Source: an uncultured bacterium (lineage in GTDB: Bacteria; Omnitrophota; Omnitrophia; Omnitrophales; Aquincolibacteriaceae). Taken from it: a stretch of DNA of 64,000 bases. The position numbers and the translations under genes are program-made. The notes beneath the pieces are model-generated. The model searched no databases. It was given only the letters and a program-made list of their open reading frames with translations, and was not told the DNA's origin. Positions 2,831 to 61,907 of this stretch are shown in pieces. Position 1 is the first letter of the stretch; every line of letters starts with the position of its first letter. The stretch covers positions 31,187 to 95,186 of the forward strand of contig CAZLTL010000006.1 of the NCBI GenBank assembly GCA_964562525.1, in the 5' to 3' direction.

Positions 2831-3012
2831 AAATCAAGCGGTTTTTTTTGTCGCCGCCTGGCTCGTCCTCTTTTTGCTTGCCAACGGAATACTTCATTGT
2901 AAGATAACGCCCAAGGTCGGCTGCTTTTTCTGTTATTTTCTATTTTTTTACATCTTTTTTACCGAGAGCCGTCCTCCCTTTATTACTTTTTTTGAGGGAA
3001 GGATTATCATTC

Positions 3013-4689
3013 ATGACGGTTTTAAACCGCGATCAAATTAGCGCTCGTTTGCTGAAGCGTGCTGAAGATTTTGGACGGGGATACCGCCAAAATTTGGCGT
3101 TGCTCGGACGGGTAGGGCTTGGCAAGACGAAGTTGATTGCCAAATTCACGGAAGCCGTCCGCGCGCGTGACTTTCCAATTCTCACAGTGCTCATTGATCT
3201 TGCGCCGGTTTCATCCAGCCAAATCACTTTTTATTGGATACGCTGCCTTTTATCTTCAGCGCTGCACTTACCGGACTCTTCTCTTGATGTTCTCTTGGAG
3301 ACTGCGGATGCCCAAGTTCCCAAAACGGCCAAAGCCGCGCGGCATATTTTAAAATTGTATAAGCAGGGCAATGCCGCTTTGGCCGTGCGCGAGTTGTTTG
3401 CTTTGAGCGGGCAATTAGCCGAAGAAACGGCTCGGAAAGTGGTTTTAATTCTGGATGAGTTTCTCGGTCTTGAGAAATTTGGGGTTCATGATGTTTATTC
3501 CATTTTCGGCAACCGGATGATGATGGAAAAAGAAGTTCTCTTTGTCGTGACCAGCTCGGAGTCCAAAAAATCCCGCGCTATTTTTTCAGAAAAACTCTCT
3601 TTGCTTTTCAGCAACTTTGAAACCATGGATTTACAGTCCTTCGGTTTTAAAGAAATGAATGTCCACATTGACGGACGAGCCTGCGCTTCTTACCTTTCTT
3701 TGCCGGCAAGGCGATTCTTGTTCCGTTTAACGGACGGGGAACCGCGTTATTTGGACGCGATGCTTCGCGCTTTAGATGATTTGGTTTGCACTGATCCGAA
3801 GCGTCAGCTGGGAATTGCCACTTTGTTTGAAACGGTTATGCGGGAAGTGCTTGAGTCGGATGGCCGTATTTCACTTTTGTTTCAAAAAAAAGTGGAGTCG
3901 CTTCCGCGGGGGCTTCGTGAGAGCGAGCATGTTTTGTCCGAAGCGGTGGCTTTGCTCAGCACGGGTCGTGTGAAGCCCGGTGCTTTAGCCGCTGCGCTGG
4001 GACTTAAAATTCCGGAAGCAAAGAAAATGATTACCCGCATGGAAGACGCAGGATGGCTGGTTTCAGGCGGAGCTTCTTATTCATTACGCGATCCGCTTTT
4101 CAGATTTTGGGCGCATGAAGTCTTGCTTCCAAACTGCCAGGGACAGCTTCTTGACGATAAAGCACGCCGCGGCCGCTGGATGCGTCTCTTAGGTTCTATT
4201 TATGAAATGGGATGTGAATCGGATTCCGCTAAAATTGTGACCCAGGTAGAGTCTTTGCTGAAGCAATTTCGCGCCGGAACAACGCAATTAGAAGGGCGCA
4301 AGGTTTACGGAGCCCATTTTCAGGAAATTGCCTGGTCGGTTGTGCAGGAGGGCTGCTGGAGTTTGCGGGCGATTTCGTCTAAAGAGAACCACTTTTATCT
4401 GGCTTCCTGCAGAGAGCTGACGGAAGCGGATATTGAGGAATTTAAAGCCTCCTCGGGCCGCCAAAAGAAGCGTGTTCGCCGGATTTTGGTCGTTGCGGGC
4501 GGGATTGAACAAAATGCCCGTCTTTTGGCCCAACAGTATAAAATGGATATCTGGGATTTGAGGTTCTTTAACCTCCTGCTTGATTTTTACGGCCTCTCTA
4601 AAATTATTGTGGAGAAACGTAATTCGTTGTGGGACAGCGACGGAGCGTGGGCAGGATCCGAAAGTTTGTTTAGTTCGGTTACACAATAA
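3013..4689 (+). CDS. AAA-type ATPase (archaeal-ATPase/ORC-like P-loop protein)
   Basis: Walker A GRVGLGKTKL and Walker B VVLILDEF. I prefer the ATG at 3013, which has GAGGGAAGGA just upstream, over the TTG at 2992 used by the ORF track. Confidence 0.75.
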   Translation: MTVLNRDQISARLLKRAEDFGRGYRQNLALLGRVGLGKTKLIAKFTEAVRARDFPILTVLIDLAPVSSSQITFYWIRCLLSSALHLPDSSLDVLLETADAQVPKTAKAARHILKLYKQGNAALAVRELFALSGQLAEETARKVVLILDEFLGLEKFGVHDVYSIFGNRMMMEKEVLFVVTSSESKKSRAIFSEKLSLLFSNFETMDLQSFGFKEMNVHIDGRACASYLSLPARRFLFRLTDGEPRYLDAMLRALDDLVCTDPKRQLGIATLFETVMREVLESDGRISLLFQKKVESLPRGLRESEHVLSEAVALLSTGRVKPGALAAALGLKIPEAKKMITRMEDAGWLVSGGASYSLRDPLFRFWAHEVLLPNCQGQLLDDKARRGRWMRLLGSIYEMGCESDSAKIVTQVESLLKQFRAGTTQLEGRKVYGAHFQEIAWSVVQEGCWSLRAISSKENHFYLASCRELTEADIEEFKASSGRQKKRVRRILVVAGGIEQNARLLAQQYKMDIWDLRFFNLLLDFYGLSKIIVEKRNSLWDSDGAWAGSESLFSSVTQ

Positions 4690-6531: not shown

Positions 6532-7002
6532 ATGATCCGCACTTTAAAGTTCCTTCTTATTTTTTTGTTGCTCGCCGTTTCTGCGTGGGTTGTTTTTATC
6601 AGCGCGTTACCCGTCCTTTTTATCCGGCAAATGGAGCATAAATACGCGATCATTTTGAAAGGGGAGCGCGATCTTGTGTTATTCACACCCCGGTTTAAAG
6701 TCAAAAATGCTTCTTTTGTTTGGAATGACAAAGTGGAATTGCTTCAGGGAAACTTTGACATTCAATTGGATCCGTTGGCGTGGATTCGTGACCGAGTTTG
6801 GGCCATGTCGCTTCAGGGGGACGGCTCCAAACTCCGCTTTTTAGGGGAGTGGCTAAAAAAAACGGGAGTCAGCGAAATTCAGACGACAAAGCTGCGGTTG
6901 GCGCTTGATTTTTACGACGGGGATATTCGTGAAATCCATCAGGTTGAAGTGGTCGCGCCGGATTATCAATTTCAAATTCAAAGCCGTGTCGTACCCCAAT
7001 GA
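6532..7002 (+). CDS. Hypothetical N-terminally membrane-anchored protein (156 aa), translationally coupled to murE
   Basis: TM helix (LKFLLIFLLLAVSAWVVFISALPVLF) followed by a beta-rich domain. Its stop overlaps the murE start (ATGA at 6999-7002). It occupies the slot where ftsL/ftsI usually lie. Confidence 0.55.
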   Translation: MIRTLKFLLIFLLLAVSAWVVFISALPVLFIRQMEHKYAIILKGERDLVLFTPRFKVKNASFVWNDKVELLQGNFDIQLDPLAWIRDRVWAMSLQGDGSKLRFLGEWLKKTGVSEIQTTKLRLALDFYDGDIREIHQVEVVAPDYQFQIQSRVVPQ

Positions 7003-10983: not shown

Positions 10984-12237
10984 ATGAATAATCTTCCTCC
11001 GGATATCGGAAAAAATGTGGTCGTTCTTGGTTTGGGTGAAAGCGGCTATCAAAGCGCGCTTGAGCTTCAAAAGCTGGGTTTTGATGTTTTTGCCACGGAT
11101 AAATCCGATACGCAAATTTTAAGAGAACGGGTCGATGCTTTGTCACGGAAAGGCGTTCAAGCGGAATGCGGAAAGCATACTTTTGACCGCGTCCAGTCAG
11201 CTGACTGGGTTTTAATTTCTCCCGGTATTCCGCCGCAATCAGAAATTTATCAGGCGCTTTTAAAATGGAAAAAGCCGGTTTACAGCGAAATTGAAGCAGC
11301 CAGTTGGTTTTGCCCTTCAAAAAATATTGTTGCGGTGACGGGCTCATGCGGAAAAACTACCACCGTGACCCTCATTCAAAGAATTTTAAAAGAAGCCGGC
11401 CGTGATGTGGTGTTATGCGGCAATATCGGCAATCCTTGGATCGGAGAATTGTCCAAAATCAAGCCTGAAACTTGGGTCGTTTTGGAAGTCAGTTCTTTTC
11501 AGCTTAAACATTGCCGCAAATTCAAACCCCATATCGGAGTCTTGCTTAATATTCATGCCAACCATCTTGATTGGCATCCTTCTCTTGAAGACTATGCTCA
11601 TTCAAAGTTGAAAATATTTGAAAATTTAGTCAAGCATGACTGGATGCTGCTTCAACAATCAGATGAAAAGCAATATGGTCCGATTCGTTCTTCCTCGACC
11701 AAGCATTATTTAAACCCGGTTGGGCAGGAGAGTTTGCTTGAAAATGCCGCGCGCCAAGTTGCTGAAATTGCGGATATTTCGTTTTCGGTGGTGGAGCATG
11801 TGTTTCGCAACTTTGAAGGGCTTGAGCATCGGCTTGAAAAGTTTTGGGAAAGTGACGGCGTTCAAGCCGTGAATGATTCCAAGTCCACGACACCCGCTTC
11901 GCTCATTTGGGCTTTAGGGCGTTATCCTGATCAGAGTGTGGTCTTGATTACGGGCGGCAGAGTTAAAACGCCCTCTTTCGTGGAGTGTTTGCCCGCGCTT
12001 AAGGCGAAAGCAAAAAAAATTGTTGTGATCGGTGAAGCACAGCCTATGATGCTTCAAGAGTGGGCCGAGCTGAATCCTCATTCCGCCGAGTCGCTTGCCG
12101 CTGCTTGCAAAACCGCATTGGCTTCTGCCCAAAAAGGGGATACGGTCCTTTTTTCACCCGCTTGCTCCAGCTTCGACATGTTCAAAAGCTACATCGACCG
12201 CGGTAATCAGTTTAAATCCCTCATTCGCCAAAGATAA
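10984..12237 (+). CDS. murD: UDP-MurNAc-L-alanine--D-glutamate ligase
   Basis: N-terminal Rossmann VVVLGLGESG and Mur ligase P-loop VTGSCGKTT. Order in the dcw cluster. Confidence 0.94.
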   Translation: MNNLPPDIGKNVVVLGLGESGYQSALELQKLGFDVFATDKSDTQILRERVDALSRKGVQAECGKHTFDRVQSADWVLISPGIPPQSEIYQALLKWKKPVYSEIEAASWFCPSKNIVAVTGSCGKTTTVTLIQRILKEAGRDVVLCGNIGNPWIGELSKIKPETWVVLEVSSFQLKHCRKFKPHIGVLLNIHANHLDWHPSLEDYAHSKLKIFENLVKHDWMLLQQSDEKQYGPIRSSSTKHYLNPVGQESLLENAARQVAEIADISFSVVEHVFRNFEGLEHRLEKFWESDGVQAVNDSKSTTPASLIWALGRYPDQSVVLITGGRVKTPSFVECLPALKAKAKKIVVIGEAQPMMLQEWAELNPHSAESLAAACKTALASAQKGDTVLFSPACSSFDMFKSYIDRGNQFKSLIRQR

Positions 12238-12434: not shown

Positions 12435-14013
12435 ATGAATAGAGTCCCGAGAATTTACAAGCTAATCGCAGTGTTTACCGCACTTTGCTTAGAGTGCACG
12501 TCCATCTCCATTCCCACTTTGCATGCTCAAACAGTTCCGCAAAATATTCTTTCTGTAAAAAAACTGAATCCTGAGATTCTTAAATTACCGGAAAAGTTTG
12601 GTGAGGTGGTGGAAAGCCATGCGGGAAATGGAAATGTGATTGTGGTGCAGGACGCGCACGCAATTCCGGATGCGCAGAAGAATATCGCGAATGTGATCAA
12701 GTATATGCAGCAAGAGTATGGCGTGGGAACCGTTGCACTTGAAGGTGCGAGCGGCGATCTCGATCCGCAAATCTTCCGCAGTTTTCCTGATAAGAAGCTG
12801 CTGCGAGAAGTGATGAACGGGTACATGAATTCGGGTGAAATCGCGGGCGGTACGGCTGCTGCGATTTTCGACGAAACCACAACGAAGTATGTCGGGGTAG
12901 AAGATTGGGATGTTTATGAAGAAGGTTTGGGGCTTTATCTCTCCGCGATGGATAAGACCGCAGCCATTGAAGCTCAGCTATCTGCTTTGCGTGAAAAGTT
13001 AAACAAGGAAAAAGAAGCGATTTATCCGCGGGCGTTACTTGAAGTTGATCACGAGATCGAAAAGTTTTATGAAAATGCCGCGCAGCTAACGGAACTGATT
13101 AAAGTGTTGGGAGCGATTCAAGCCCCTAAGGCAGGCAGTGAACTTGAAGCGGTGTGGAAGGAAGTTTCGAAAGCCCACAGTCCGGCGACCGGAGGCGAGA
13201 GAAAGGACATAGAGGTTCGTGCTTTAGCAGCGAAGGTCGAAAAGGTGTTAAAGAGCCCAGGGGCGGTGAAAGCGTTTAACAGCCGTAAACAAGAATGGAT
13301 GACAGGTCAGATCAGCGCAGAAGCCTTTGCACTCAATTTGAAAGAGTTTGCTGATCAAAGCGGACTTAATCTTGAGATGTCCTCCGATTTGCTCGGAATG
13401 GTACGAGACCAGCAAACGTTAAAGGGGCTTGAAGGAACCAAGCTGTTTCGGGACTTAGAGATTTATATCCGTGAAGTGAAGATGCAGTTAACGCAAAGAC
13501 AACAGACGGATGTTTCGGTTAGCGGTGTGAATGCTGAGATGTCAGCGATTCGGGCGTTGGATGAACGGACGAATTCACTGCGTGTATTAACGAAGCTATC
13601 AAAACTTGAGTTGTCCCGCCAAGAGTGGACGAATTTATCGGGGAATTTGGTGTTTGAGGCCTTTGCGGCATTGGGATTAAAACAAGAAGACTTTCTGTTC
13701 CACCTCGCTTTTTATCTGAATGCTGAAGAACGCGACCAAATCTTTTTCGATAATCTCAAAGCTTCGGTCACCGGCCTCCGGCCTTCCGTGATTGTGGCCG
13801 GTGGTTTTCACGCGGAAGGAATCACGAGCCGCCTCAAAGAGGCGGGAATGGGCTATGCGCTTGTGATGCCGAAGATCAATCACATTCCTGAAAATAACTC
13901 GTACAAAGCGCAGATGCGCGGGGAAGTGTCGTGGAAAGATTATTTTGAAGTTGAGAACGGTCGCATCCATCTTTACAAGGCGTTTGTGCGCGCAACGCGC
14001 GACAAGCTTGTCG
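12435..14013 (+). other. ORF A head module: signal peptide plus split TraB/TIKI/ChaN-like domain
   Basis: The signal-like N-terminus is [11 protein letters not shown]...[41 protein letters not shown] and [12 protein letters not shown] resemble the GTxH...VE and GxGHxxG motifs of TraB/GumN/TIKI-fold proteins. The same motifs occur in ORFs B and C. Confidence 0.5.
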
Positions 14014-17000
14014 CAGACCGGAGACCGGAGGTCGGAGGGCAGAGTGACTCAGAGCTCCGGACCCCGGACTTAGGCCTATTAAAAGCTTGGCGCGATCAAA
14101 TCATCCGTGATTTATCGGATATGGGGAAGGTGAATCGCGCGGCCTGGTACACACGGTTTATGGATGAAGTGGTGGACGAAAGCCTGAAGCACACCGATGC
14201 CGACAAGCTGATGATCAAAGTCGACAATTTTATCCGCGGTTTGCGCGGACTTGAGAAGAACAATCAAATTGATCAGGCAAATATAGCGGATTTACTCAAG
14301 GCAAGTATGGCGTCACCTGCTGTTACTTCCCCAGCTGTTGTCGGTACCCCGCTGTCGTTTCCGGTTAATCCCGCAAGTGAAGTTACCATGCAAGAAGCAT
14401 GGGCTAGCGTCCGGGAGTCTCTTCCTGTCGCCATAATTAATGCTTCTCCAGCAGATAATACGCAGTTGCAAGAGCAGGTGACGACGATTCAGGCAAATGA
14501 GCCAATTAATTACAGTGGACTCTCAGCTGAGTTTGATGCAGCAGCTATTAAGCAAACGGCCTTACTTAGCAATTTGGTTCGGCGGGTCTCAAGTATTACC
14601 GATGCAGATTTGGAGTATGAGTGGAATGAAATGGGACGACTTCTTCGTTTGGTGAACGGGATGAAAGGAGAGCCCGACCCGCGAGATCCGGAAGCAATTT
14701 TTGGTTCTGAAGAGCGCAATTTTAAACTACCGGTTGCAATGCGTTCCAAAATTGTGCGCAGTTTGAGTGAGCGAATTCAGTTTAAGTTGGCATGGACGCA
14801 TGCTGTAAATACATTTTTGAACGATGCTGAAGGTGTATCCAAGTTGGCAAGCCGGGCTGCCCCTGCATTAAGAGAGAGTAATGATGAGGGCGCGGCTGTT
14901 GAATTTGAAGTTTTGTCTCCTGGACAATTAACGGACGAAGAATTCTACCGTACTCTTTTGGGCGACAACGGAACCGTGAGCAATGGGTTGATTGGTTCGG
15001 GAAATTTAGTAGCAGCTTTTCGACTTGTTACTCAGAAAATGGCCGTCATGATCAAGGCCGGACCCGAAGGAGTTCCCGGTGGATCAAGAGAGCTAATCAA
15101 GCGCGTTCATGCCTTAGATGGAGTCGCTAAAATGATCCGCGATGAAATTACAACAATGCAGCGCTCCGAAGCGCGGGTTAATGAAAATGCGCCGACAGAT
15201 CAGGCGGCACGGGAGGAAGCGCTTGCAACTGATGAGAAGCTGAAAAGGCTTGATGTCACGACTTTCTTTAAAGAGATCCTTAAATCGGAATGGAAGTGGT
15301 TGTTGGTTGGTTTTGTTTTATTAATTTTGAGCACCATGCTCTACGACTTAGTCGCTGTTACTACGGTCGCGCAATTTTTTTTAAAATCTCTGGGGGTGGG
15401 TGTTGGTTTCTCTTGGGGTGCGATTTTGCTGTTCAATCCTTTGACAGTGCTTACCCATGAATTAGGGCATTTTCTAACCTACCGATTAGTTGGCGGTAAA
15501 TCCGATAACACGTTTGGTTTTAATAGGCACTCCTACTTTTTCAATGCAGATGACATATATAAACTCCCCATATGGAAAGTTCGGATTGTGGATATGGGTG
15601 GGCTTGTGATCAACACAGCTATTTTTGCCACAATTGGTCTTATTTCGTATCTTACTTTGGGCGCGACCCCTGTTCTTATTGCTCTCGCTGGACTTCAACT
15701 TGCTGAATTTATAATGGCTTCCGGTGATTATGAGAAATTCTTCAATGCCAGAGGGTATCAGGCTTTGAGCCTTGATATTGCAAAGTTTCAGGAAGAGATC
15801 AAAAATTACAAACCTGAATTTCATGCAGATGGCACGCGAATATCGGCTGAAGCTGATCGCCCTTTGGATGAGCAAACTCAACGCGAAGCACGGGTGGATA
15901 AAACAGAAGAGGCTTTGAGAAGTGGGGCGTTAACAGTTGAAGGGAAAACGGCGGTTTTTGGCCCTCAGGCGAATAAAGATTTTGCGATAGGAGTAAGCCC
16001 GGAAGTTTCATTTGTGGATTTAGATAAAGCCGATTTTGTAACGAAAGCAGAAACATTTCTCTTTCAATCGCTTTTCTTTGCGGCGGCTTTTTTAAAAATC
16101 CCTGTTGGGAAAGAGCAGAAATTAAATACTTACAAGGAAGTATTTGAAGCGCTTCAAAATGCCAAAGCCGCGGTCAAAAATGCCGGTGGCTTAAGCTTGT
16201 ATGCTGCCCAAGAAAAATTAAAAGAAGCCCAAGCTGAAAAAGATGAGTTTGTGGCTGAAGCTCAAAAGAGAGGTTTTGCCGAGTTTTTGCTTCCGGGTGG
16301 AATTCTAAGCCGCCGCATGGAGATTTTTGTTCCCAATGAAAATCAGCGCGAACGGCTTTTAAAGTATTTAACCTTAACTTTTGTAGGGCAAAGTAAGGAA
16401 TCGCTGCTCTCAGACATTCTGAAAGTGCAGCAAAAATTAGGAGTCACTTTTGATCCGGCGGTTCTTGAGCAGCTTTTAGCCGAGTTTGAATCAAAGCGCA
16501 GCTTCATGTTTCCCGGGGGAGTTTTTGCCGGGAAAATGGATGCAGAGATTCAAGATATTTTTGGTCAATTTATTCAGGTGAAAGTTTTAAGTCAAACCCA
16601 AAGTGTTTCAAGCCCCTCAGTTGGAAATATTCAGCTCAATCTTTCAGGTGCGTTGGTTATGGGGGCAGGCCAATCTGAAGTCGCTGTGGATTGGGATCAA
16701 GTTTTACAGTCAGGAGAATTGGCTCCGGCATGGTCTGAAGCTTTTACTGCACAGCTCAAGAAGGCGCTCATCTTTAAAGATGGGAAACTGCGTGTGTTTA
16801 ATCTCGGGACAGGCGACCCCACCCCGTTTAGCCAGAATCAAGATTACACACATATGGCATTTATTGTGAATGGGAAAATGATTGTTACCGATCCGTCCAT
16901 TCGCAGTATTCGTAATCTTGAGCGTTTGGGATTTTTGGAAAAAGTTGAGGCAATTCATCTGACCCATGTTCACTTTGACCATGTAGGTGGCATTTTAGAT

Positions 17001-20000
17001 ATAGCGCGCCGTAAACTCAAAAAATCGGAATCCTTGCCTAAGCTTAAGCTGGTTATGCCGACTGTTGTTGCGCTGCAACTCGAAAGAACTCTTGCTTATA
17101 ACTTTTCCACGATGGCTGATGATTCAAATTATGATTTCAGCCAGCTTGCGCTGGTCAGCGAACTTTTCGATTATCGGGGACCTGAGAAAATCAATAAAAC
17201 GATAGAAATTTCCCAATTACAAGAATCTGCAGAGTTTAAAGGTGTTCAAATTGAACTTGCACCAACGTTTGGACACCCGATTCCAACCTACGGAGTCAAA
17301 TTGATTACTCAAGAGGGTTTGAAGATAGCCTATTTGTCCGATTCAGTGATGCCAACCCCAACGATTAAAGCAGCGGATGGAAAGGCAATCCCTAATCCTC
17401 GATATTCGGAGTTTGTAAGTTACTATGCGGATTCAGATATATTGATTGCTGAAAATGGCGTGCCGGGCGTGCATATTACTCCCGAGCAGCTTGCCGAGGC
17501 TTTCCCTGAGCATATTAATAACGGAACTCTGTTTACTGTTCATTCGTCGGGTCCCCAAGCTCAAAAAGGGTTAATTCGATTTATGCCGGGCATGATCTTG
17601 TCTCCGCTTCAATCGAATCAAAGAAAGCAAGATGTTCAGCAAAGTGCAGCGACGCTCATTGAGAATGAAGCTATTCGAGATTTTTTAAAGTTAAATTTAG
17701 AGTTAGCCCAAGAACTTTCGAGTATGGGAACGAAGGTTTCATTTTCTGAGGGGGAAGTTCTTTTTCAGCAAGGCAACCCGGTTTATGACTTTGATCATGT
17801 TTATATTTCTTTATCCGGCGAAACAATCGTTGAGGGGCCCGGTGCAAAGCGGCTTCCTTCGATTGGAGCTGGGAGATTAATCGGTGAAATGGCGCTTTTG
17901 ACTAAGGCTTTGACGCAAGAACAATATGACCAGATCATGGTAGCCATCGGGAAGGGTAAGGATACGGCAGCGCTCGATTTTTTTGGGAGAGTGACTTACG
18001 ATTTGGTAATCGAAGGGCAGCCTCCTTATCGCATTGTGAATCCAAGTTTTGACTTAGAAATAGAAGCGAAGGAATTGACGGAGGATCAAAAATCAAAGTT
18101 AAAGCCTGTCTTTGATATTGCAAAGTCAGGTAAACCCATTCCGCGATCGGTAACGGTTCGGGCAGGTGCGGGAGCAACTTATTTAGCGATTCCCAAAGAT
18201 GCTTTTTTACAGTTTTTAACACGAATTGATGCGTCAAAAATCGATTCGAGTCGACAAGCATTCATTTCAGCTATTTACGCACAAATTGGCATCAATCTTG
18301 ATTCTCGAAAAAAGATGAGTGAGTTAGCCACTCCCACTCAGAACGAAACAGATGTGGTAAAGGCATCAGCTGATACGTCAGTTCGCTCCGAAGCGCGCGC
18401 GGATGTTGAATGGTTTAACTGGCGCGTGGACAAACAAGGCAATCCAGTTTCGAATGCCGGGCCTATGAGCGAGCTTGTCACTTTGAATGTTGGTGACAGT
18501 ATCTACTTTGAGGTTCCAAAAAATAAGCCGGGTTTGATCGACTATTACTACCAAGTCGGAATGGAGGGCGAGAATTTTACTTTTCAGCGCTATGAACAAA
18601 GCGGGTCTGTTGCTCAACCTGCTGGTAAGAAAATCGAAATTCCCCGATCACTGCAAACGGATAAGGCCGCTAAAAACAGTGATAACTATCTATTTAGTTT
18701 TCAAGTTAATAATGGAAAACTAATGGTGAGTTCAGGCCAGAAATATGGCTTGCTAAAAAGTAAGGTTAAAAAAGACGGAGCGATTGGTGATAGTAAACCG
18801 AGCGTGCGACGAAAAAAATTTGACGATGCCGCTCGGTCTTATCGTGAAGCATTATCAAAAACAGATTTCCCCAGGTTGAGAAGTTTGTCAGCTGAATTAG
18901 ATGAAAAAATGGACGAAATTTTGGGGGTGGCTACGAATGGTTTATTTCTAATACCGCTTGGTTGGCTTGAAGGACGAATCAAAGAAATGGATGCGGGGTT
19001 GCGTCGAATTGAGAGACATGAGTTATCGGGTCAGGGTAAAGAAGCTTTGGGCTGGGCGATGCAGGTGCTGACGGAACAAATCAATCATTTTCGAAATTCT
19101 GTTGTTGCTGTTAATTTAGAACTCAATCTTTTGACCCAAGGAGAGAAAATTAATTACGATGTTTTTAGTGAGTTGATAGAGAGCTTTCTTCAAACCAACA
19201 GCTTATTTGCATTATCTCAAGAGTTGAATGTTCGCATGCAGTCCTACCCTGAGACAATTGAGTTCAGTTTAAAAAATGTCGATGCCGATTCAAAGATTTC
19301 TGCGCTTAAAAGGCGAATTTTCGATTATGGGCAAGCAACGGCTACTTTGACGCGTCTTGAAGACGCTCGAATATTTTTTGAGAACAGCTGGAAATTGTAT
19401 GATGATCTTGTTGGGTTGATTCAGCAAATGGCATTAGAAATTCAAAGACGTGATGAAACCGAAATGACGATTGAAAGAGGTGCTGAGGCAGCAAAAGAAC
19501 AGCGCAATCAGCTTTGGCGGAGTATTGATTATTATGAAGTGCTAGGTGTTTCTCGAGATGCTTCTCTAGGGGACATAAAAAATGCTTATCGCAGTTTAGT
19601 TCGCGCGGGTAATCATCCGGATAAGGTCGCAGGCGACTCTGCTACGCTAAAAGCAGCTGAAGAGAGATTTAAAGAAATAGGACCGGCATATGAGGTCTTA
19701 AGTAATGAAGTAGACCGCGCTGAATATGACAAAATTCATTTTGCCCGTTCCGAAGCTCGTTCGGTAGACTCAGGGCAAGCGCGGGACTCGTATGAGCGCT
19801 ACAAGCTTTTATCAGGGACTTTGGCAGATTTACCTGACCCTGTATTTGTCAACGATGGGGAAACGATTACTTTGCGGATTCCGCATGATGAAGTCGAAGG
19901 TAGTCAGCCCGAGCTTGATCTTTTGGTTGTATTCAAAAAATTTAATGGGAAGGTGTTTTTTGCCCACCTAGATTCATTTTCAGACTTATCAATGCTTGAT

Positions 20001-23000
20001 GAATATTACCGTTCTGCTGATCCTCTTCAGGAAGGTTCTCGAATCAAATGGGAAGAGGTGAACGAGACTTCAGAAGTTGAGATTATAGGTCGTGAGGAGG
20101 AAATGGATAGTGAGGGTACCAAGGTCAAGATTGTTTTTAGTGAACAGGGTTTTACGATTGCCAATGCCTCGATCTCGGATGTTTATTATTTTGAGGGTAA
20201 GCCCGGTCCGGAAATTATTGCTTCCGCTCTTCGGGATAGTTATCTTTCAAGTGCGAGCACAGGTTTGCCCATAGCCACCGAGCCAATTTTTATTGCCGGG
20301 GAGGATGCAACTGAAATTTTTAACTTGGTCACTGAGTTTATTAATCAGGGTCCGTATGTTCCTGCTGCAGGCGAAACCGCTCTCTACACAAAGGTGAAAC
20401 AACAAATTAGGTTGATTACCGAAAGAACCGGCGAAAAGTATCGATTCAACCCGATGATTCAAATAAATGCCTTAAGTGATACTTATAGAGCTTTAAACAA
20501 TTTTCTCATGAATCGATTTACTGACCTGGAAGGCTTGGAAAAAGGTGTGGTCATTCTCAAGCGAATTCCTAATCTTGAGAAGCTGATCGAAGTTTTAAGA
20601 CATTTAATATCAGCTTACGAGCTGGCTTTTAATCACCTTGAGAATTCAACTATTGAGATCGAGGTGGATGAAAAAGAAAACCATCGGCGTCATGCCTTGC
20701 AAATGCTGGTTGAGTTAAAAAAGATTGTTAATTCATATGATTCAATTCCTCCTGCCGAACGACCGCGGGCTGAAATCCAAGGAGAAGTTCGAATGGCAAG
20801 GTTGCCCAGCCAAAAAAACTTTTCCGAGTTCATTTCTTACAATGGCGATAAAATTCCACTTTGGGCAATTAAAAGAATTTATCTGCCGGATAATAGGGTT
20901 ATTCAATTTGGTGAGATTTCTCAGGCTAATAACGAGGATGGTGTGTATGATCGGGAGGATCGCACGAGAGACGTTAGGAATGCCTTGTCACCATTTCCAG
21001 AGAGTGCGGAGATCGTTTTTGAGCTGCAAGATGGCGTTTTATTAAAGCGAATTTTGGAAGCGGAAGAGTATGAGACGATAACGGCAGTCTATCCGGTTGA
21101 TTTTGACCCCAAAGAATTTAGCAGGCTTCCGCACGGAATAGATTTACCGGAGCGGCGGTTTATAAATGCAGTTAACGTGAACGGGTTTATTACCACCCTT
21201 TATGAGTTGGAATCTCTTTTGCCTGAGACTGGGTTAGCCGGCAGGACAGTGACTTTTTTCTATTCCGCGAATAACCATCTTCAAGCCTTCAAAATCAGTG
21301 ATGAAGCTAAACCTCAGTCTGAGCAATATGTTTACTCTCAGTTTCGAAATTCAAGCAATGTTCAGCCTATGTCCGCGCCTTTTTCTGCTCAGGAAACTCA
21401 AGAAATTGCAAAAAAGGATTTGGTTGACCTATTTGCGGATCTCTTTAATCGCCGTGCGTTGACCTCCGCGCAGAGGGTGGTTCCGTTGAGCGCGCTTATT
21501 CTTCAATTTTTGGCTGTCTCGCTTAACGCTAAGGCTGTTTCAGATTGGGCTCAGGAAGGCAAAGTTCCGCTGTTTGAAGTTGAGTTGGCGAACGAACAAA
21601 CCATTTCATTCAGCGGGCTTAATCCTGCTTTACATCACGATGATGCCGTGCGGATTGAAAGACTGCTATCTCAGATTGACGGGGGATTGGATGCCGCTTC
21701 TTTTCGAATTGTTTTGGCGCCTGCTGGACCGGCTACCCAGTCGAATCAAGCGGGGCAATTTTTTGATCGACCCGGGCGTGGTTTGGATGAGTTCAATGCC
21801 TGGCATAAGTTATCTGATGTCTTGGAACTGTTTTTTCTGTCAGTGGGCGAAACTGGCAAAGACAAGAAATTGGATGCTGCGTCAAAACAAAAACTTTTAG
21901 ATAAACTCGCCGTGCTTGTTGAGGCGATAGCCATGATTCATCCTTCAGTAACAGGAAGTGAAATTTATCATACTTTATATGCTGTCATGGATGCTTCAAT
22001 GTTTAGGGCTAAAAAACTAGATACAGGCAGCAGAATCAATGTTTTGATTAATTTGGCGCGCCAAATCAGAGCCGCTGCGCCTCAAGATCCTCAACAGAGC
22101 ATTTATGTGCAAGGTGAGTTTGAATCAAAATTAAAGACCCCAAACTTAGATCTAAATGAATTGGCAAAAGAGACTGCCCGCTCCGAAGCCCGTTCGGCAG
22201 ACTCAGGGCAAGCGCGGGAGGCTGAGGCGGTTGCGGGAGATGTGTTTGGCTTTTTTAAATCGCCCGCGGATTATTCTGCAGACCAGATAAATACTTTGGC
22301 AGATGAAATTGATACATTGGCTGATAAACAAGGGCTTGATGTTTTTGTGAATCTCTTGCGATCGATAGCTCGAGACTTAGCTGTCGTTAGTGTTCAGGGG
22401 AGCGAAAATATTTTAAGCAAAGAAGCGACAAGTTTTGCCGTGAAACTTTTTGTTGGACGCATGATGGCAGCAAAGCGGCAGTCGACTTTAATAGATGTAA
22501 AAATCGAGAAGCCAACCATTGCTTTAGCATTAAAATTGAATGATGCCCAAAAAGCTTCTCTGGGAGATAAGTTGTCCAGCGAATTGGCTGAAATTCTGGG
22601 TGCGGTTCAGATTGAGGCCAAAGATTTTAAAGAATTAGGTGCGTTTTTTAAGAGCGTAGGGGTTTTAGTGACAACGATTGATCCCGATCTAGCAAACGCA
22701 GTTGTATTAGAAAGTTTTGGTGCGGATTGGAGTGGTTTACCTGCCGTGGGTGTCTTAGAAGAATCGCAGCAATTTGATTCGGAGTTAGAAGGGATGCGTA
22801 TTTATTTGCAGCTTTTGATCGCGGCTTATTTAGCTCGGAGCTTTCCGGATAAGAAAGTAATTTTGACACCCGAGATTGTTGGCGAGATTAATAAGCTGCT
22901 GTTTCAATCTGATGCAGGGCAAGAAGGAATTGTGCAGATACAAAATGGTCAGTTAGTTGTTAAACGAAGCAGTCTGCTGGCATATATTCAAACCTTATTC

Positions 23001-23033
23001 GCGGCGCAATCTGCCGTTGCAGTCGCCGCGTAA
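12435..23033 (+). CDS. Giant modular protein A (3,532 aa): signal peptide, head module, multi-enzyme cargo, tail module
   Basis: Uninterrupted 10.6-kb ORF. Recognisable in-frame motifs occur along its whole length (see the domain sub-features). Its N- and C-terminal modules are paralogous to the ORFs at 41847 and 45438. Confidence 0.85.
13179..13199 (+). repeat. In-frame heptamer triplet AGTCCGG CGACCGG AGGCGAG (encodes SPATGGE)
   Basis: Three 7-nt units (21 nt) inside the ORF A head module. Confidence 0.55.
14015..14070 (+). repeat. In-frame heptamer repeat with inverted arm (AGACCGG AGACCGG AGGTCGG ... CCGGACC CCGGACT)
   Basis: Direct reading of the sequence. The arms match as reverse complements at 11 of 14 positions. 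It encodes [18 protein letters not shown] at the end of the head module. Confidence 0.75.
15291..15755 (+). other. ORF A cargo: M50/S2P-like intramembrane metalloprotease-like module
   Basis: Several hydrophobic helices. HELGH (15456-15470) lies within a predicted TM segment ([18 protein letters not shown]), as in site-2 protease/M50 families. A downstream MASGDYEKF may supply the acidic ligand. Confidence 0.55.
16786..17560 (+). other. ORF A cargo: metallo-beta-lactamase-fold hydrolase domain
   Basis: The HxHxDH signature [10 protein letters not shown] is at 16965-16982. Downstream are His/Asp positions (TFGHP, YLSDS, TVHSS). Confidence 0.75.
17650..18230 (+). other. ORF A cargo: cyclic-nucleotide-binding (CAP_ED-like) domain with a large internal insertion
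   Basis: [30 protein letters not shown]...[12 protein letters not shown], then about 75 aa, then [26 protein letters not shown]. Confidence 0.65.
19527..19742 (+). other. ORF A cargo: J-domain (DnaJ N-terminal domain)
   Basis: [34 protein letters not shown]...[23 protein letters not shown], with the HPD tripeptide at 19614-19622. Confidence 0.85.
22179..23030 (+). other. ORF A tail module (shared with ORFs B and C)
   Basis: It starts at the last RSEAR motif and ends ...[38 protein letters not shown]. Compare B ...EDGIEKAGKNWRITKPSLSRLKDIWQRFQAALQVMQSA* and C ...EQEGVGRYKLTNNSLVLYLETILADIEALLATAQSA*. Confidence 0.6.
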
Positions 23034-23122: not shown

Positions 23123-24229
23123 ATGTCACGCGAAGGCCGTCTTCTTTTTTGGGCTTCTTTTATCCTTGTCGGATTTGGTTTGGTCATGGTTTATAGCTCC
23201 AGCGCCGTTGTTGCTGCTGAGCAATACAAACATGCTTCCTATTATCTGACACGCCAGGCTTTATTTGCCGGTTTGGGAGTAATGGCTTTCTTTCTCGTTG
23301 CCTCCATTCCGCTGAGTTTTTATAAAGATCACGCGCGCACAATTATGTTTTGCGCCATCGGACTGACTTTGCTTGTCTTCGTTCCTGGTTTGGGCCGTTC
23401 AGCGGGTGGTGCGCGCCGCTGGATTACTTTGGGCGGATTTAATATTCAGCCCGCTGAGTTTGTAAAGCTGGCTGCTTGTATTTATTTAGCCAACTACTTA
23501 TCCCGAAAAGTAACCGTCGTTCAAAAGGGAACTTTAAGTGTTTATATTCCACCCGCAATTTTGATCGGATTGGTGTGCCTCTTGGTTTTGGTTCAGCCCG
23601 ACTTGGGTTCTTTCGCTTTTCTTGTGATTTTGACCAGTTTGGCATTTTTCGTGACTGGTCTTCCGGTCCGCTTCGTTGCTATTGCTTTGGGTGTTTTGAT
23701 TCCTGCGTTTTATTTCCTGATTGTGCGTGTGCCTTATCGTATGAAGCGCCTCGAAGCCTATCTTAATCCTTGGGATGATCCGCAAGGCAAAGGTTTCCAG
23801 ATTATTCAGTCTTTGCTTTCTTTTGCTTTGGGCGGAACCACCGGTGCGGGGCTTGGGCAGGGAACTCAGAAACTTTATTATCTGCCGTCAGGGCACAATG
23901 ACTTTATCTTTGCTGTAATCGGCGAAGAGTTGGGGCTTTTCGGGACTTGTTTTGTTTTGGCCGCTTTTTTGGTGATTTTTTACGCCGTCGTGAAGATCGC
24001 TTCCCGGCGTCAGCAGATTTTTGAAAAACTTCTCGTTTTGCTTTTAGGCTATTACCTCGTTATTCAAGCGATGATTCATATGATGGTGTGCACCGGTTTA
24101 GTCCCTACAAAAGGCTTGCCGCTTCCTTTCATTAGTTATGGTGGCAGTGCTTTAATTGCGAATATGGTGGCGGTGGGGTTGATTATTGCGTGTGACAGAC
24201 ATACCCGAGTCGAATGGAAACCGCAATAA
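23123..24229 (+). CDS. ftsW: SEDS-family lipid II flippase/peptidoglycan glycosyltransferase
   Basis: Polytopic membrane protein with the FtsW/RodA signature (...GLVPTKGLPLPFISYGGSA). Located in the dcw cluster upstream of murG. Confidence 0.92.
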   Translation: MSREGRLLFWASFILVGFGLVMVYSSSAVVAAEQYKHASYYLTRQALFAGLGVMAFFLVASIPLSFYKDHARTIMFCAIGLTLLVFVPGLGRSAGGARRWITLGGFNIQPAEFVKLAACIYLANYLSRKVTVVQKGTLSVYIPPAILIGLVCLLVLVQPDLGSFAFLVILTSLAFFVTGLPVRFVAIALGVLIPAFYFLIVRVPYRMKRLEAYLNPWDDPQGKGFQIIQSLLSFALGGTTGAGLGQGTQKLYYLPSGHNDFIFAVIGEELGLFGTCFVLAAFLVIFYAVVKIASRRQQIFEKLLVLLLGYYLVIQAMIHMMVCTGLVPTKGLPLPFISYGGSALIANMVAVGLIIACDRHTRVEWKPQ

Positions 24230-28586: not shown

Positions 28587-29429
28587 ATGGCTAAACGAAA
28601 AAACAATGTTTCAACTCGAAAAAAGTTTAAATGGGGTTCGCTTTATGACTGGGTGCCCAGCGCGCTTGTGCAATCCTTCGCATGGGTTGTCTTAATTTTG
28701 TTTTTGGCGGGCTCAGGGATGGGCGTTCGCGAAATGCTTTATGCTGACCCTGCTTTGCAATTGCGCCAAATCAAGGTTTATCCTCCTGACGCGATGTCGA
28801 TGGCGAAATTGGAATCTTTGCAGAAGAAATACTTCGGTCAAAACACGGCTGAAATTGATTTAAAAGCCATATCGAAAGATTTGGAAACCGACCATCAAAT
28901 ACTCAAAGCGGAAGTCCGCCGCGATTTACCCAATCAGCTTGAAATTCATGTTGAGCGCCGCGTACCTTTTGCCTCGGTTCATTTCGGTCGCAACGGTAAA
29001 TGGGCCCTGGTTTCGCGCGACGCGGTTGTGATTGATTTGATCCAACAGCCGTCCGAAGGGTTGTACGTAGTTGAAGATGATTTGCTGGCGAGCCAAAAAC
29101 CTAAAGTGGGATTGAGATTGTCGCGCGACATTTTAGATTTAGTCCGCACGACGGACGCATTTAAGAAACATCCCGCGGTGCAGAATGAGAAGATCAATTC
29201 AATTCAAATGCTGCCGAATGACGCGGCCATTTTGAACCTGAGTGATCTGTATTTAAAAGTCAGCTTGAATGATCCGGATCCGTCGGAAGCTTTCAGTAAA
29301 TTTCAATATTTACTTGAAACGGAGAGCCGTGCCGTGATCGAATATGTCGATTTGAGATTTAACCGCGTTATTTTAAAGCGCAAAGCAGAAAAAAAAGAAG
29401 ATGAACCCCGGCGAAATAAGAAAAGGTAA
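28587..29429 (+). CDS. ftsQ: Cell division protein FtsQ/DivIB (TM plus POTRA)
   Basis: Basic N-terminus, one TM (FAWVVLILFLAGSG), a POTRA-like segment (LRQIKVYPP...EIHVERRVPFA). Positioned between ddl and ftsA. Confidence 0.8.
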   Translation: MAKRKNNVSTRKKFKWGSLYDWVPSALVQSFAWVVLILFLAGSGMGVREMLYADPALQLRQIKVYPPDAMSMAKLESLQKKYFGQNTAEIDLKAISKDLETDHQILKAEVRRDLPNQLEIHVERRVPFASVHFGRNGKWALVSRDAVVIDLIQQPSEGLYVVEDDLLASQKPKVGLRLSRDILDLVRTTDAFKKHPAVQNEKINSIQMLPNDAAILNLSDLYLKVSLNDPDPSEAFSKFQYLLETESRAVIEYVDLRFNRVILKRKAEKKEDEPRRNKKR

Positions 29430-30645
29430 GTCGATTGTCGTTTATATTGGCGGCAGGCGCATTGTCGCAATTTTAGGTTCGACTGATGCTGCGGTACCCA
29501 GTGTTTTACGTTTTCAGGAGCGCAAATTTCCCGACGGCTTAACGAACGGTCTCGTTACTAACTTACAAAACGCAACCAACTCCATTGAAAAGGTGCTGAG
29601 CGATTTAGCACCTCTTTCTGAATTGGAAAAGACGCCCGTTTACGTTGTTTTGGGAAACGCGTCTTTGCGCCAGCATCGCTTTGAAAGTTCCCAATATTAT
29701 TCTGCAACACGCACGATTACTGCGGAGGATGTGCGCGCGGTGATTCAGCAAACTCGCAGCGTCGCGACTTTGCCCTTAGCGGAGACTGTTCTTACCGCGT
29801 TGCCGGAATCATTCGTGGTAAATGATATGGGGGGCGTTAAAAATCCGATTGATTTGGAAGCCCAAAGACTGGGCGCTCAGGTGCAATTGTTTTCCATGGA
29901 TTATCAAAGTCTCCGCAATATTGTCAAAATATTCGAAGGCTTGGACCTTGAGGTGAAAGGTTTTTTTCCTAAGACTCTGACTGTTTCTGAAGCGGTTCTG
30001 AAGCCGGAACATAAACAGAATGGGTCGGTTGTGATCGATATTTCCGACCGTTCCACCGAGGTGATGGTTTGGAAAGATCAAAAGCTGGTTGTCTCTAAAT
30101 TTATTCCCGTCGGAGGAAGCTGGCTGACTGAAAAGATATCCTCCCGCTATAAGCTTGACCCCGCGGCCGCGGAAAGTTTGAAAGAGAAATATGGTTCTGT
30201 CGACAGCGATATCAAGGCAGATGAACTTATTCCGCTTTGGTCAAAGTCGGAGCAGTCGCGTGAGATGATCCGCCGGGGCGATTTTCAAGCTGTTTGGCTT
30301 GAGCTTGTTAAAGAGTGGATGACTTTGATTCATAAAGAAGTGGAACAAGTACTCAACGAAGCGAATGTTTTTCATCCGGAGACTTTCTTTACGGGAGGCC
30401 CGGTTCAAATGGACGGTTTTTTAGAGTGGATGCAGCGTGAGTTTAAAATAGAGGGGAAGATAGGCCTTTCTCATCAGCTGGATACGACGCCTGAAATTCT
30501 TCGCAGCCCGGTTTTGGTGCCTGCCTTAGGAATGCTGCATTGGATTGATTATTTTAAGCGGGAACTCGAACCGCTTTATGTTCCGCGCGGCGTTCTTGAA
30601 AAATCTATTTTGACAGCGAAGACTTGGTTCGCGAATTACTTTTAG
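29401..30645 (+). CDS. ftsA: Cell division protein FtsA (actin-like ATPase)
   Basis: FtsA-like blocks: ITAEDVRAVIQQ, PESFVVNDMGGVKNPIDLEAQRLG, SVVIDISDRSTEVMVW, IPVGGSWLTEKI. The phosphate-1 motif is divergent (VVYIGGRRIV). Confidence 0.82.
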   Translation: MNPGEIRKGKSIVVYIGGRRIVAILGSTDAAVPSVLRFQERKFPDGLTNGLVTNLQNATNSIEKVLSDLAPLSELEKTPVYVVLGNASLRQHRFESSQYYSATRTITAEDVRAVIQQTRSVATLPLAETVLTALPESFVVNDMGGVKNPIDLEAQRLGAQVQLFSMDYQSLRNIVKIFEGLDLEVKGFFPKTLTVSEAVLKPEHKQNGSVVIDISDRSTEVMVWKDQKLVVSKFIPVGGSWLTEKISSRYKLDPAAAESLKEKYGSVDSDIKADELIPLWSKSEQSREMIRRGDFQAVWLELVKEWMTLIHKEVEQVLNEANVFHPETFFTGGPVQMDGFLEWMQREFKIEGKIGLSHQLDTTPEILRSPVLVPALGMLHWIDYFKRELEPLYVPRGVLEKSILTAKTWFANYF

Positions 30646-30667
30646 AGTCTACTTTTTTGGAGCTTTC

Positions 30668-31285
30668 ATGAAAAAAAATATCATAGCTTTAAATTCATTA
30701 CTTTTAATCATTGCCATGTCTTTTTCGATGCCGGGATCGGCGCAGGAGCTTTCAGCCCAGCAAGGGGTCGAAGCCTTTTTGAACACGATTCGTTCAATGG
30801 ATTTTCCCGTTAAAGATGCCGCGCTGCATGATCAGAAAACTCAGCAGGCCGCGGCCTTTCTCGATCTTCAGGCTATGGGGCAGAAAGCTCTCGGCGCGAA
30901 TTGGACCGCAATGACCGCGGATCAGCAGAAGCAATTTATGGAATTGCTTTGGAAGCTGATTGAAAACATTGCTTATCCGCGCACCAAGAGTTTTTTAGGC
31001 GAGCAGAAAATTACTTATACCGATACAAAACAAGTTGAGCAGGGCGCCGAAGTGTCCAGCTTGGTGCATGATAGTGAAGCCGCGCTGGATGTTCCGATTG
31101 TTTATCATCTCTACCAAGACGGCACGCAATGGAAAATCAAAGATATTTTTATGGACGGTGTTTCCATGACAGAAGATTTGCAGTATCAATTCGATAAAAT
31201 GATCCAAGATGGATCCATCCAAACGCTGCTGGACCGCATGAGTGAACGTTTAGTTCAGGCTCAAAAAGAAACAACGGGCGCTTAA
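30668..31285 (+). CDS. MlaC/Ttg2D-family periplasmic lipid-binding protein (HpnM-like)
   Basis: Signal peptide (...MPGSAQE). Family-typical blocks: FLDLQAMGQKALGANW, QQKQFMELLWKLIENIAYP, WKIKDIFMDGVSM. Confidence 0.75.
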   Translation: MKKNIIALNSLLLIIAMSFSMPGSAQELSAQQGVEAFLNTIRSMDFPVKDAALHDQKTQQAAAFLDLQAMGQKALGANWTAMTADQQKQFMELLWKLIENIAYPRTKSFLGEQKITYTDTKQVEQGAEVSSLVHDSEAALDVPIVYHLYQDGTQWKIKDIFMDGVSMTEDLQYQFDKMIQDGSIQTLLDRMSERLVQAQKETTGA

Positions 31286-61162: not shown

Positions 61163-61907
61163 ACTGTTGACGCTCAACACTTGGCAGGAGCGCGGTCCCT
61201 GGCGCGAACGTTGGGAATTAATTTTTGCCGGACTCAAATTTTATTTGCCTGATATTGTCGCTTTTCAGGAAGTCTTTAACATGGATTGGGCGGATGAAAT
61301 TCAGAAACGTAGCGGATTTCCTTATTTATCCAAGAGTGGACAAAACTCCGGGCTCATTTTTCTATCCAAGCATCCCATATTAAAATCTGAGTGTCTGACT
61401 TATAAAACAAAATCACCGAATGAAGACTACAACCGCTACGCGCATTTCGTGCTGTTCCAAGTCGGGCGTCAAAGGATTGCAGTGTTCAACACCCACCTTT
61501 CATGGCTTTTGCCCGAAGATGATATTCGATTAGGGCAAACGCGCGAATTACTTGGGTTTATGCGTCAAAAATCACGGCGTTGGCTTGGTTTAGGGGGCAG
61601 TTACCCTTCCTTTCTCACGGGAGATTTGAATTCTGACCCGAATAAGCCTTCCGTGGAAGCCGTCAAAAAGATAATGACAGACACTTATGCGGAACTTAAC
61701 CCAGGGCAGCCGGGTATCACTTGGGATTATAAGAATCCCTTTGCTGAACGCGCGCGCGATCGCATGCCTGAGCGCAGGCTGGATTACATTTTTACCCGCG
61801 GCATGAAAGGGAAGACCAAAAGCTCGGAAATCGTCTTTAATCAGCCGGACGCGAATGGCACTTTTCCGTCCGATCATTTGGGCGTGATGACGGAGATACA
61901 GTTATGA
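61155..61907 (+). CDS. Endonuclease/exonuclease/phosphatase (EEP) family protein
   Basis: LLTLNTW...DIVAFQEV at the N-terminus, GDLNSDP, and C-terminal PSDHLGV. Confidence 0.82.
   Translation: MLRLLTLNTWQERGPWRERWELIFAGLKFYLPDIVAFQEVFNMDWADEIQKRSGFPYLSKSGQNSGLIFLSKHPILKSECLTYKTKSPNEDYNRYAHFVLFQVGRQRIAVFNTHLSWLLPEDDIRLGQTRELLGFMRQKSRRWLGLGGSYPSFLTGDLNSDPNKPSVEAVKKIMTDTYAELNPGQPGITWDYKNPFAERARDRMPERRLDYIFTRGMKGKTKSSEIVFNQPDANGTFPSDHLGVMTEIQL

Follow-up and report, generated by a model that had tools for sequence, protein, structure and literature searches.

What is a segment resembling an intramembrane metalloprotease doing inside a giant protein that is encoded among cell-division genes? The question is raised by a 64,000-nucleotide stretch of contig CAZLTL010000006.1 (the window) from an uncultured bacterium of the Omnitrophota, in which an open reading frame (ORF) of 3,532 amino acids, ORF A, lies between murD and ftsW. 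Coordinates given below are window positions, and ORF A residues are numbered from the start of its 3,532 amino acids. The segment in question, referred to as the module, is bounded by the peptides RSEAR and QREAR, which begin 239 amino acids apart (residues 910 and 1149), and contains an HExxH motif in the form HELGH. M50, or site-2, proteases (S2Ps) are free-standing membrane enzymes, sometimes equipped with PDZ or CBS domains. By the comparisons set out here, the module very probably descends from the M50 superfamily. The alignments show that it retains the predicted HExxH helix, beta-hairpin and GG helix of that superfamily, and that the canonical third zinc ligand has been lost.

HELGH is the only HExxH sequence in ORF A; from composition, 0.04 copies would be expected across all of ORF A and 0.002 within its hydrophobic cluster, and only 4 of 5,000 shuffles placed an HExxH inside residues 946-1100. 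Hydropathy and AlphaFold models put the motif within the C-terminal third of a helix whose start lies in a hydrophobic stretch. The strongly hydrophobic segments of the whole of ORF A are residues ~954-1006 and 1049-1096, both in the module, and the signal-like residues 7-28, with none elsewhere; the module is the sole transmembrane (TM) region of the protein, apart from the signal-like N terminus. A preliminary description of this DNA had placed RSEAR at 15162, HELGH at 15456-15470 and QREAR at about 15880, and had set HELGH inside a helix. All three positions were borne out (QREAR begins at 15879), and both AlphaFold models agree on the helix, at residues 991-1019 in the single-sequence model and 994-1018 in the alignment-guided one. 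The same description had taken ORF A for a multi-TM giant protein, and this had to be given up: because, the signal-like N terminus aside, ORF A has no hydrophobic helices outside the module, the module is not embedded in a multi-TM protein.

Among the profile matches that speak for M50 descent was one to the NCBIfam family of YydH/LiaK intramembrane metalloproteases (NF058609; E value 1.5e-7, 31.4 bits), although the equivalog cut-off of 225 bits was missed. The match covered positions 55-182 of the 246 in the profile and stopped short of the C-terminal part in which the third ligand lies. When HELGH was changed to AALGA the match stayed, at 17 bits and in the same range, while all four hydropathy-keeping local shuffles and the reversed sequence gave no match. 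One of three shuffles that preserved HELGH reached 17.7 bits, and the real sequence stands 14 bits above this best control. Lower scores were returned by two Pfam families. The 'putative zincin peptidase' DUF3267 (PF11667) scored 20.1 bits (E value 8.6e-4 with the module alone) against a gathering score of 27.1, profile positions 4-94 of 108 matching module residues 95-190, and Peptidase_M50 (PF02163) scored 14.2 bits (E value 0.027) against a gathering score of 27.2, with only profile positions 8-43 matched.

Comparison with a whole family of M50 proteins pointed the same way. A tblastn search against plasmids gave eight matches, each insignificant, of which five lay under genes annotated as M50, S2P or RseP (three of these five are one identical plasmid sequence). 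The best match was to a Chondrinema protein that is a bona fide Peptidase_M50 (PF02163, 35.6 bits). A comparison family of 104 members was seeded from this protein, and against NCBIfam its members score 95-115 bits with daptide_HExxH (daptide protease, NF041824) and 44-65 bits with YydH/LiaK. Alignment of the module with the family by hhalign gave a probability of 95.6%, an E value of 1.1e-8 and a score of 60 over 110 aligned columns, a result to be read with the caveat that the seed was chosen as the best weak tblastn match. The score obtained for 60 HELGH-preserving local shuffles was 35.7 +/- 4.0 (maximum 45.9), about 6 standard deviations (SD) lower than the real one; with HELGH mutated the score was 32.6, and plain local shuffles gave 17.1 +/- 3.8. 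The TM segments of two paralogues of ORF A, B and C, and of the giant protein of a sister genome (L002) reached at most 1.1% probability against the same family.

Close relatives of the module were not recovered by any of the following searches. A k-mer-indexed homologue search with the module (246 amino acids) and its core (161 amino acids; E value up to 10) returned nothing and missed the module's own protein too, and an exhaustive phmmer comparison with 1.84 billion representative proteins found no homologue of the module beyond the protein itself. The second phmmer match (P0002) was rejected on reading its sequence, which is that of a low-complexity eukaryotic chitin-binding repeat protein. 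A PDB sequence search with the module returned nothing at E values up to 10, and metagenomes scanned for the module and for the conserved C-terminal domain yielded no relatives. Judged by these profile and family comparisons, the closest known subgroup is that of the ribosomal-peptide-maturing M50 proteases (YydH/LiaK and daptide proteases), and the module is most probably a very distant, orphan relative of the site-2/M50 intramembrane metalloproteases.

Structure prediction depended on the input. The single-sequence AlphaFold model of the module was poor, with a predicted local distance difference test score (pLDDT) of 51, and gave no match to an S2P. Guided by an alignment of the 104-member family, AlphaFold reached a pLDDT of 74 and a predicted template modelling score (pTM) of 0.70, and in this model two helices come first, then the HExxH helix, a beta-hairpin and two long helices, the order expected of M50. 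Residues 954-985 form one long helix in the single-sequence model, whereas the alignment-guided model divides them into two (954-965 and 968-985).

The fate of the active site was read from the family alignment. In M50 proteases the third zinc ligand is supplied by the Asp of the NxxPxxxxDG (LDG) motif, and mutating this Asp inactivates characterised S2Ps. The 104-member family is invariant at H184, E185, G187, H188, G235, D284, Y286, W287 and D291, and its motif N276-x-x-P279-x-x-x-x-D284-G285 is the classical NxxPxxxxDG. At the corresponding positions of the module the Asn is replaced by D1098, the Pro by K1101 and the Asp by R1106, and G1107 and Y1108 are retained. The register across this motif was the same in hhalign and in MAFFT --add, and the per-column confidence of hhalign was high (digits 5-9) across FFNARGY versus FFRFDGY. 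Opposite the invariant Asp stands the Arg1106 codon, AGA (15750-15752); because AGA differs from GAY at every codon position, the replacement is not one recent mutation. Another residue, D1053 in the LDGG-like sequence IVDMGG, was rejected as a candidate third ligand, since its counterpart is the start of the family's V[ND]LGG helix, where Asn and Asp alternate, and not the ligand motif.

These results bear on two further points of the preliminary description. It had called the segment an M50/S2P-like protease module, and the ancestry and the probable fold stood, on the YydH/LiaK match and the 95.6% hhalign probability, but the Pfam M50 threshold was missed and catalysis is not established, because the third ligand, a defining feature, was sought and is absent from its place. 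It had also proposed a look for the second M50 motif, a downstream Asp; the aligned position is Arg1106, which goes part of the way towards its own stated ground for refutation, the lack of a third metal ligand. Canonical zinc-dependent proteolysis by the module is, on this alignment, unlikely, and at most the module may keep peptide or metal binding.

One interpretation of these data, which we favour with roughly even confidence, is that the module acts as an M50-derived membrane anchor or hinge with a crippled site. It would join an exported head of ~900 amino acids, which follows the signal-like N terminus, to a cytoplasmic tail of ~2,400 amino acids that carries metallo-beta-lactamase-fold (MBL), cyclic-nucleotide-binding (cNMP-binding) and J domains. 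J and cNMP-binding domains are cytoplasmic. A five-span, N-out/C-in topology would fit, because it satisfies both the signal peptide and the cytoplasmic J domain. With this topology HELGH would come to lie at the cytoplasmic membrane face, as in RseP, and the HExxH helix would run out-to-in, again RseP-like, with basic residues after it.

Support for the anchor role comes from paralogues B and C, whose N-terminal head is shared with ORF A and whose TM segments are plain ones that lack HExxH. The two paralogue ORFs of the window (41847-45272, 1,141 amino acids, and 45438-59639, 4,733 amino acids) have signal-like N termini and no Pfam domains, and neither RSEAR nor HExxH was found in them. Their head domain is 43% identical between the two across ~570 amino acids and is weakly shared with residues 18-244 and 418-494 of ORF A. 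As a single membrane-spanning hinge of a multi-enzyme protein of 3.5 thousand amino acids, an M50-derived segment would put the fold to a new architectural use, and the half-preserved active site may mark a pseudo-protease in the making.

Several observations weigh against the anchor reading. The topology is a proposal drawn from hydropathy and domain logic. All four family-invariant residues of HExGH are intact at ~25% identity to the family, which is a hint of continued selection on the metal site, and the nearby acidic residues D1098 and D1114, or else H1031, could substitute for the lost Asp. The structural match of the alignment-guided model is partly circular, M50 proteins having made up the guiding alignment, and a Foldseek comparison of this model with the PDB gave nothing below an E value of 8. 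The homologue and metagenome searches found no orthologue by which conservation could be judged.

Table 1. Features of ORF A and of the M50-like module, in window coordinates (aa, amino acid residues of ORF A)
Feature	Position	Strand	Basis and remarks
ORF A, giant gene	12435-23033	+	3,532 aa; between murD (10984-12237) and ftsW (23123-24229)
Signal-like hydrophobic N-terminal segment	12435-12527	+	hydropathy; putative cleavage site (before Q) read from sequence
M50-like module	15162-15893	+	aa 910-1153, RSEAR to QREAR
RSEAR junction, 5' boundary of module	15162-15176	+	aa 910-914; CGCTCCGAAGCGCGG
First hydrophobic helical stretch	15294-15389	+	aa 954-985; hydropathy and models
HExxH-bearing helix	15414-15488	+	aa 994-1018; alignment-guided model; aligns to M50-family HExGH helix
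HELGH	15456-15470	+	aa 1008-1012 (H1008, E1009, H1012); aligns to family-invariant H184, E185, G187, H188
Beta-hairpin after HExxH helix	15516-15539	+	TFGFNRHS, aa 1028-1035; counterpart of family IGFGxY hairpin
Helix aa 1046-1075	15570-15659	+	counterpart of family R-x-IVNLGG helix; some members read VD-x-GG
Last hydrophobic helix and amphipathic continuation	15669-15806	+	aa 1079-1124
Degenerate third-ligand motif	15726-15755	+	aa 1098-1107; aligned to family NLNPFFRFDG
QREAR degenerate junction, 3' boundary of module	15879-15893	+	aa 1149-1153; CAACGCGAAGCACGG; 10/15 nt match consensus
MBL domain	16845-17366	+	aa 1471-1644; weak Apyc1-like match
cNMP-binding domain	17736-17915	+	aa 1768-1827; weak PADLOC PycTIR-like match in same region
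RSEAR junction	18384-18398	+	motif search
J domain (DnaJ)	19527-19730	+	aa 2365-2432; stops just 5' of next RSEAR
RSEAR junction	19746-19760	+	part of 45-nt repeat 19742-19786
RSEAR junction	22179-22193	+	part of 45-nt repeat 22175-22219

The alternative that survives best, tentative and on balance doubtful, is that the module is an active, non-canonical M50-type peptidase, in which HExxH and a substitute third ligand (such as D1098, D1114 or H1031) would hold zinc, and the enzyme would cut peptide segments that reach it at the cytoplasmic membrane face. Its substrates would be the protein's own linkers, with the RSEAR junctions as obvious candidates and ORF A as a self-processing polyprotein, or other proteins, paralogues B and C for example; processing of the giant protein or its paralogues, as raised in the preliminary description, is speculation. 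Besides the preserved H, E, G and H of the motif, this alternative can draw on the closest relatives, the leader peptidases of RiPPs (peptides made on the ribosome and modified after translation), which cut soluble peptides at short recognition sequences and not TM helices; for YydH a role in epipeptide maturation has been described (PMC7026026). Cleavage of linkers is conceivable because these relatives are believed to trim short ribosomal peptides in RiPP maturation. RSEAR stands at module boundaries four times in ORF A and eight times in the L002 protein, and embedded peptidases have been proposed to process both giant Omnitrophota proteins (bioRxiv 10.1101/2023.11.21.568195) and polyvalent proteins (PMC5512222). 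Note, however, that none of the canonical Asp, Asn and Pro of NxxPxxxxDG is left in place, that the L002 protein has its eight RSEAR sites and yet lacks HExxH in its available 3,233 amino acids (the motif is absent from the L001 ORFs as well), and that codon conservation at RSEAR exceeds what the peptide calls for, which points to a DNA-level or common-descent cause and not to a protease site alone.

The RSEAR motif was further studied in ORF A and its sister counterparts. Where 0.005 exact copies of RSEAR would be expected, ORF A has four, and a six-frame search of the rest of the window gave none; RSEAR was also the top direct-repeat family in a blind repeat search of ORF A. Three genomes together hold 13 exact copies, namely the four of ORF A, eight in L002 (positions 1346, 3107, 4802, 4991, 5978, 6623, 7664 and 8798) and one in L001 (position 2969). 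Conservation extends to the nucleotide level, with the consensus CGCTCCGAAGCGCGG and with variation only at wobble positions in all 13 copies. None of the 13 uses AGR or AGY codons, the first Arg is CGC in 10, and the Ser is TCC in 12, against a gene-wide share of TCC of 11% of Ser codons. Judged by this codon usage, the motif is more uniform than the peptide alone requires. The 45-nt direct repeat listed in Table 1 (93% identity between its copies) encodes ARSEARS[VA]DSGQAR at two module junctions. A hairpin seen by eye in the RSEAR nucleotides (GCGC...GCGC) was dropped, its stem being lost in variant copies, and a literature search for RSEAR returned unrelated words only.

Contig ends fall at two of these junctions, and a step in composition at the first. 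One Logan short-read contig (L083, SRR13355622), 100% identical to the window, ends at 15175 inside an RSEAR motif, and another (L084, ERR15459718), 98.8% identical, starts at 22190 inside an RSEAR motif; two independent contig ends from different samples suggest branching, repeats or heterogeneity at the junctions. At the first RSEAR the G+C content of third codon positions (GC3) changes in a step: the head (12435-15161) has 0.49, similar to murD and ftsW (0.455-0.46), and every later module (15162-23030) has 0.37-0.42.

The genomes closest by their FtsW anchor, both from the Omnitrophota, are UBA2337 (L002; FtsW 98% identical in amino acids and 85% in nucleotides) and an uncultured one (L001; 86% in amino acids). 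Between the window and L002 the flanking genes share 78-85% DNA identity, whereas the giant genes have no detectable nucleotide similarity. The order of modules is permuted: residues 1974-2606 of ORF A read X, gap, J domain, RSEAR and Y, and residues 1995-2562 of the L002 giant ORF read RSEAR, Y, gap, X and J domain, and the breaks in order fall at RSEAR or at RSEMR and RSESR, which are decayed forms of it. The enzymes carried by the sisters differ as well: L002 has 2H-SAK, and L001 has HAD and SLOG/LSDAT domains.

Taken together, the conserved RSEAR copies, the permuted modules, the differing enzymes, the contig ends and the GC3 step suggest, but do not prove, that RSEAR marks recombination or assembly junctions of a cassette-built gene. 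It could be that ORF A and its sister counterparts are a cassette-built, recombining polyprotein gene as a whole, in which RSEAR would be the site of module exchange or permutation, and maybe of cleavage, and the M50-like segment would be one cassette, for membrane insertion and possibly processing; we regard this larger proposal as unlikely. If true, a cassette polyprotein would amount to a mode of diversification not described before for a giant bacterial protein, and with RSEAR the giant proteins of the Omnitrophota would gain their first candidate points of cleavage or junction. The RSEAR junctions, the permuted modules, the assembly breaks at junctions and the insertion between murD and ftsW make the construction and diversification of such genes open to test.

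The weakest alternative, that the module is a generic multi-helix anchor whose HELGH and weak profile matches are a coincidence of hydrophobic composition, is quite improbable: the Pfam scores below their gathering thresholds, the lack of anything significant in the PDB sequence search, in Foldseek or among the 1.84 billion representatives, and the HELGH-preserving shuffle that still scored against YydH/LiaK are in keeping with it, but the margins of the real sequence over its controls in both NCBIfam and hhalign, a similarity that survives mutation of HELGH, a 110-column alignment that takes in the hairpin, the GG helix and FF-x-x-x-GY, the lack of a match for other TM segments of the same gene family and the rarity of shuffles that place HExxH in the cluster all tell against it.

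The setting of the gene was compared with other retrieved loci. Upstream of ORF A lie murE, murF, mraY and murD, and downstream ftsW, murG, murC, murB, ddl, ftsQ and ftsA. The gap between murD and ftsW is 19-108 nt in all other retrieved Omnitrophota loci (L003-L011 and L018), so that the genes are adjacent, and they are adjacent also in nearly all other phyla retrieved (loci set L001-L080); a giant gene or large ORFs between them were found only in the window, L002 and L001. Because the two genes are adjacent elsewhere and interrupted only in these three loci, ORF A is a lineage-specific insertion in the division and cell-wall (dcw) cluster. A public NCBI protein (P0001), also of 3,532 amino acids and identical across the module, is a singleton on a 104-kb contig, and an exact look-up of the ORF A sequence among assemblies returned no record. 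Promoter and terminator scanning across ORF A showed no excess over shuffles. An antisense ORF within it (15486-15881, 131 amino acids) was taken as spurious, as it lies inside the long sense ORF and has no Pfam match.

Within the tail of ORF A, the MBL domain, weakly like the anti-Pycsar nuclease Apyc1, adjoins a cNMP-binding domain with a weak likeness to the sensor in Pycsar TIR effectors (16845-17915), and these neighbours hint at a possible cyclic-nucleotide theme in the cytoplasmic tail. PADLOC gave no match for the module, and for the whole of ORF A only the weak cNMP-binding similarity to Pycsar TIR effectors.

Other genes of the window were also recorded. At 29401-31285 of the dcw cluster, ftsA is followed by a MlaC-family gene and then an MMPL transporter, not by ftsZ, and no FtsZ/tubulin domain was found among the scanned window ORFs of at least 150 amino acids. 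Not far upstream of murE, and separated from it by a small unannotated ORF (6532-7002), is an ORF of 565 amino acids (2992-4689) that has no Pfam match at an E value of 1e-5 or below; a penicillin-binding or FtsI-type gene is usual at roughly this position of the dcw cluster. A conventional membrane metalloprotease, Peptidase_M48/Ste24-like (118 bits), is encoded at 61904-63028 and is unrelated to the M50-like module.

Among known systems, the M50 proteases of RiPP pathways (YydH/LiaK, daptide and the 'putative peptide zinc metalloprotease' family; alignment A1) are the best-scoring family and resemble the module most. Both carry HExGH in a membrane helix, next the hairpin residues G-x-K-x-x-N-x-FGF, then a helix start W-K-x-R-I-V-[ND]-x-GG, two hydrophobic helices and FF-x-x-x-GY, with the order and spacing of the elements equal. 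They differ in that the module scores 31 bits against the YydH/LiaK cut-off of 225 and lacks the Asp, Asn and Pro of NxxPxxxxDG, and in that the RiPP enzymes are free-standing proteins of ~250-420 amino acids, whereas the module is an internal segment of a protein of 3,532. In place of the precursor peptide, radical-SAM epimerase and ABC transporter of a yydFGHIJ-type operon, the module has dcw genes as neighbours; neither radical-SAM nor ABC transporter domains were found in the same set of scanned ORFs, in which small precursor-peptide ORFs were not searched for.

The canonical S2Ps SpoIVFB (8vjl), RseP (9j83, 7w6z) and MjS2P (3b4r) carry HExxH where a TM helix reaches the cytoplasm, with basic residues and a small hairpin after it, as the module would. 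Unlike them, the module has no PDZ or CBS domain, its third ligand is not conserved, and no partner substrate (anti-sigma or pro-sigma factor) is recognisable here.

Looser parallels concern the architecture of ORF A as a whole. In the polyvalent proteins of phages and conjugative elements, many unrelated enzymatic domains are joined in one chain whose content differs between relatives, as in ORF A, and their HExxH metallopeptidase (MPTase) domain has been proposed to release the other domains by autoproteolysis (Iyer et al. 2017, PMC5512222). These MPTases are soluble zincins with Glu as third ligand, whereas the module is M50-like and would be membrane-embedded; polyvalent proteins reside on mobile elements, whereas ORF A lies in a chromosomal cell-division cluster, and no phage or conjugation genes turned up among the scanned window ORFs.

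The giant proteins described by West-Roberts et al. (bioRxiv 10.1101/2023.11.21.568195) come from the same phylum and, like ORF A, are long, multi-domain and membrane-associated with an internal peptidase-like domain. They differ in size (30-85 thousand amino acids against 3.5 thousand), in the type of peptidase (C39 and S8 against M50-like) and in that ORF A sits inside the dcw cluster; M50 and ftsW receive no mention in that study. Its authors reported these peptidase domains (C39 and S8), proposed that the giant proteins are cleaved into pieces and stated that the cleavage points are unknown. ORF A bears on this question of whether, and where, the giant proteins of the Omnitrophota are cut.

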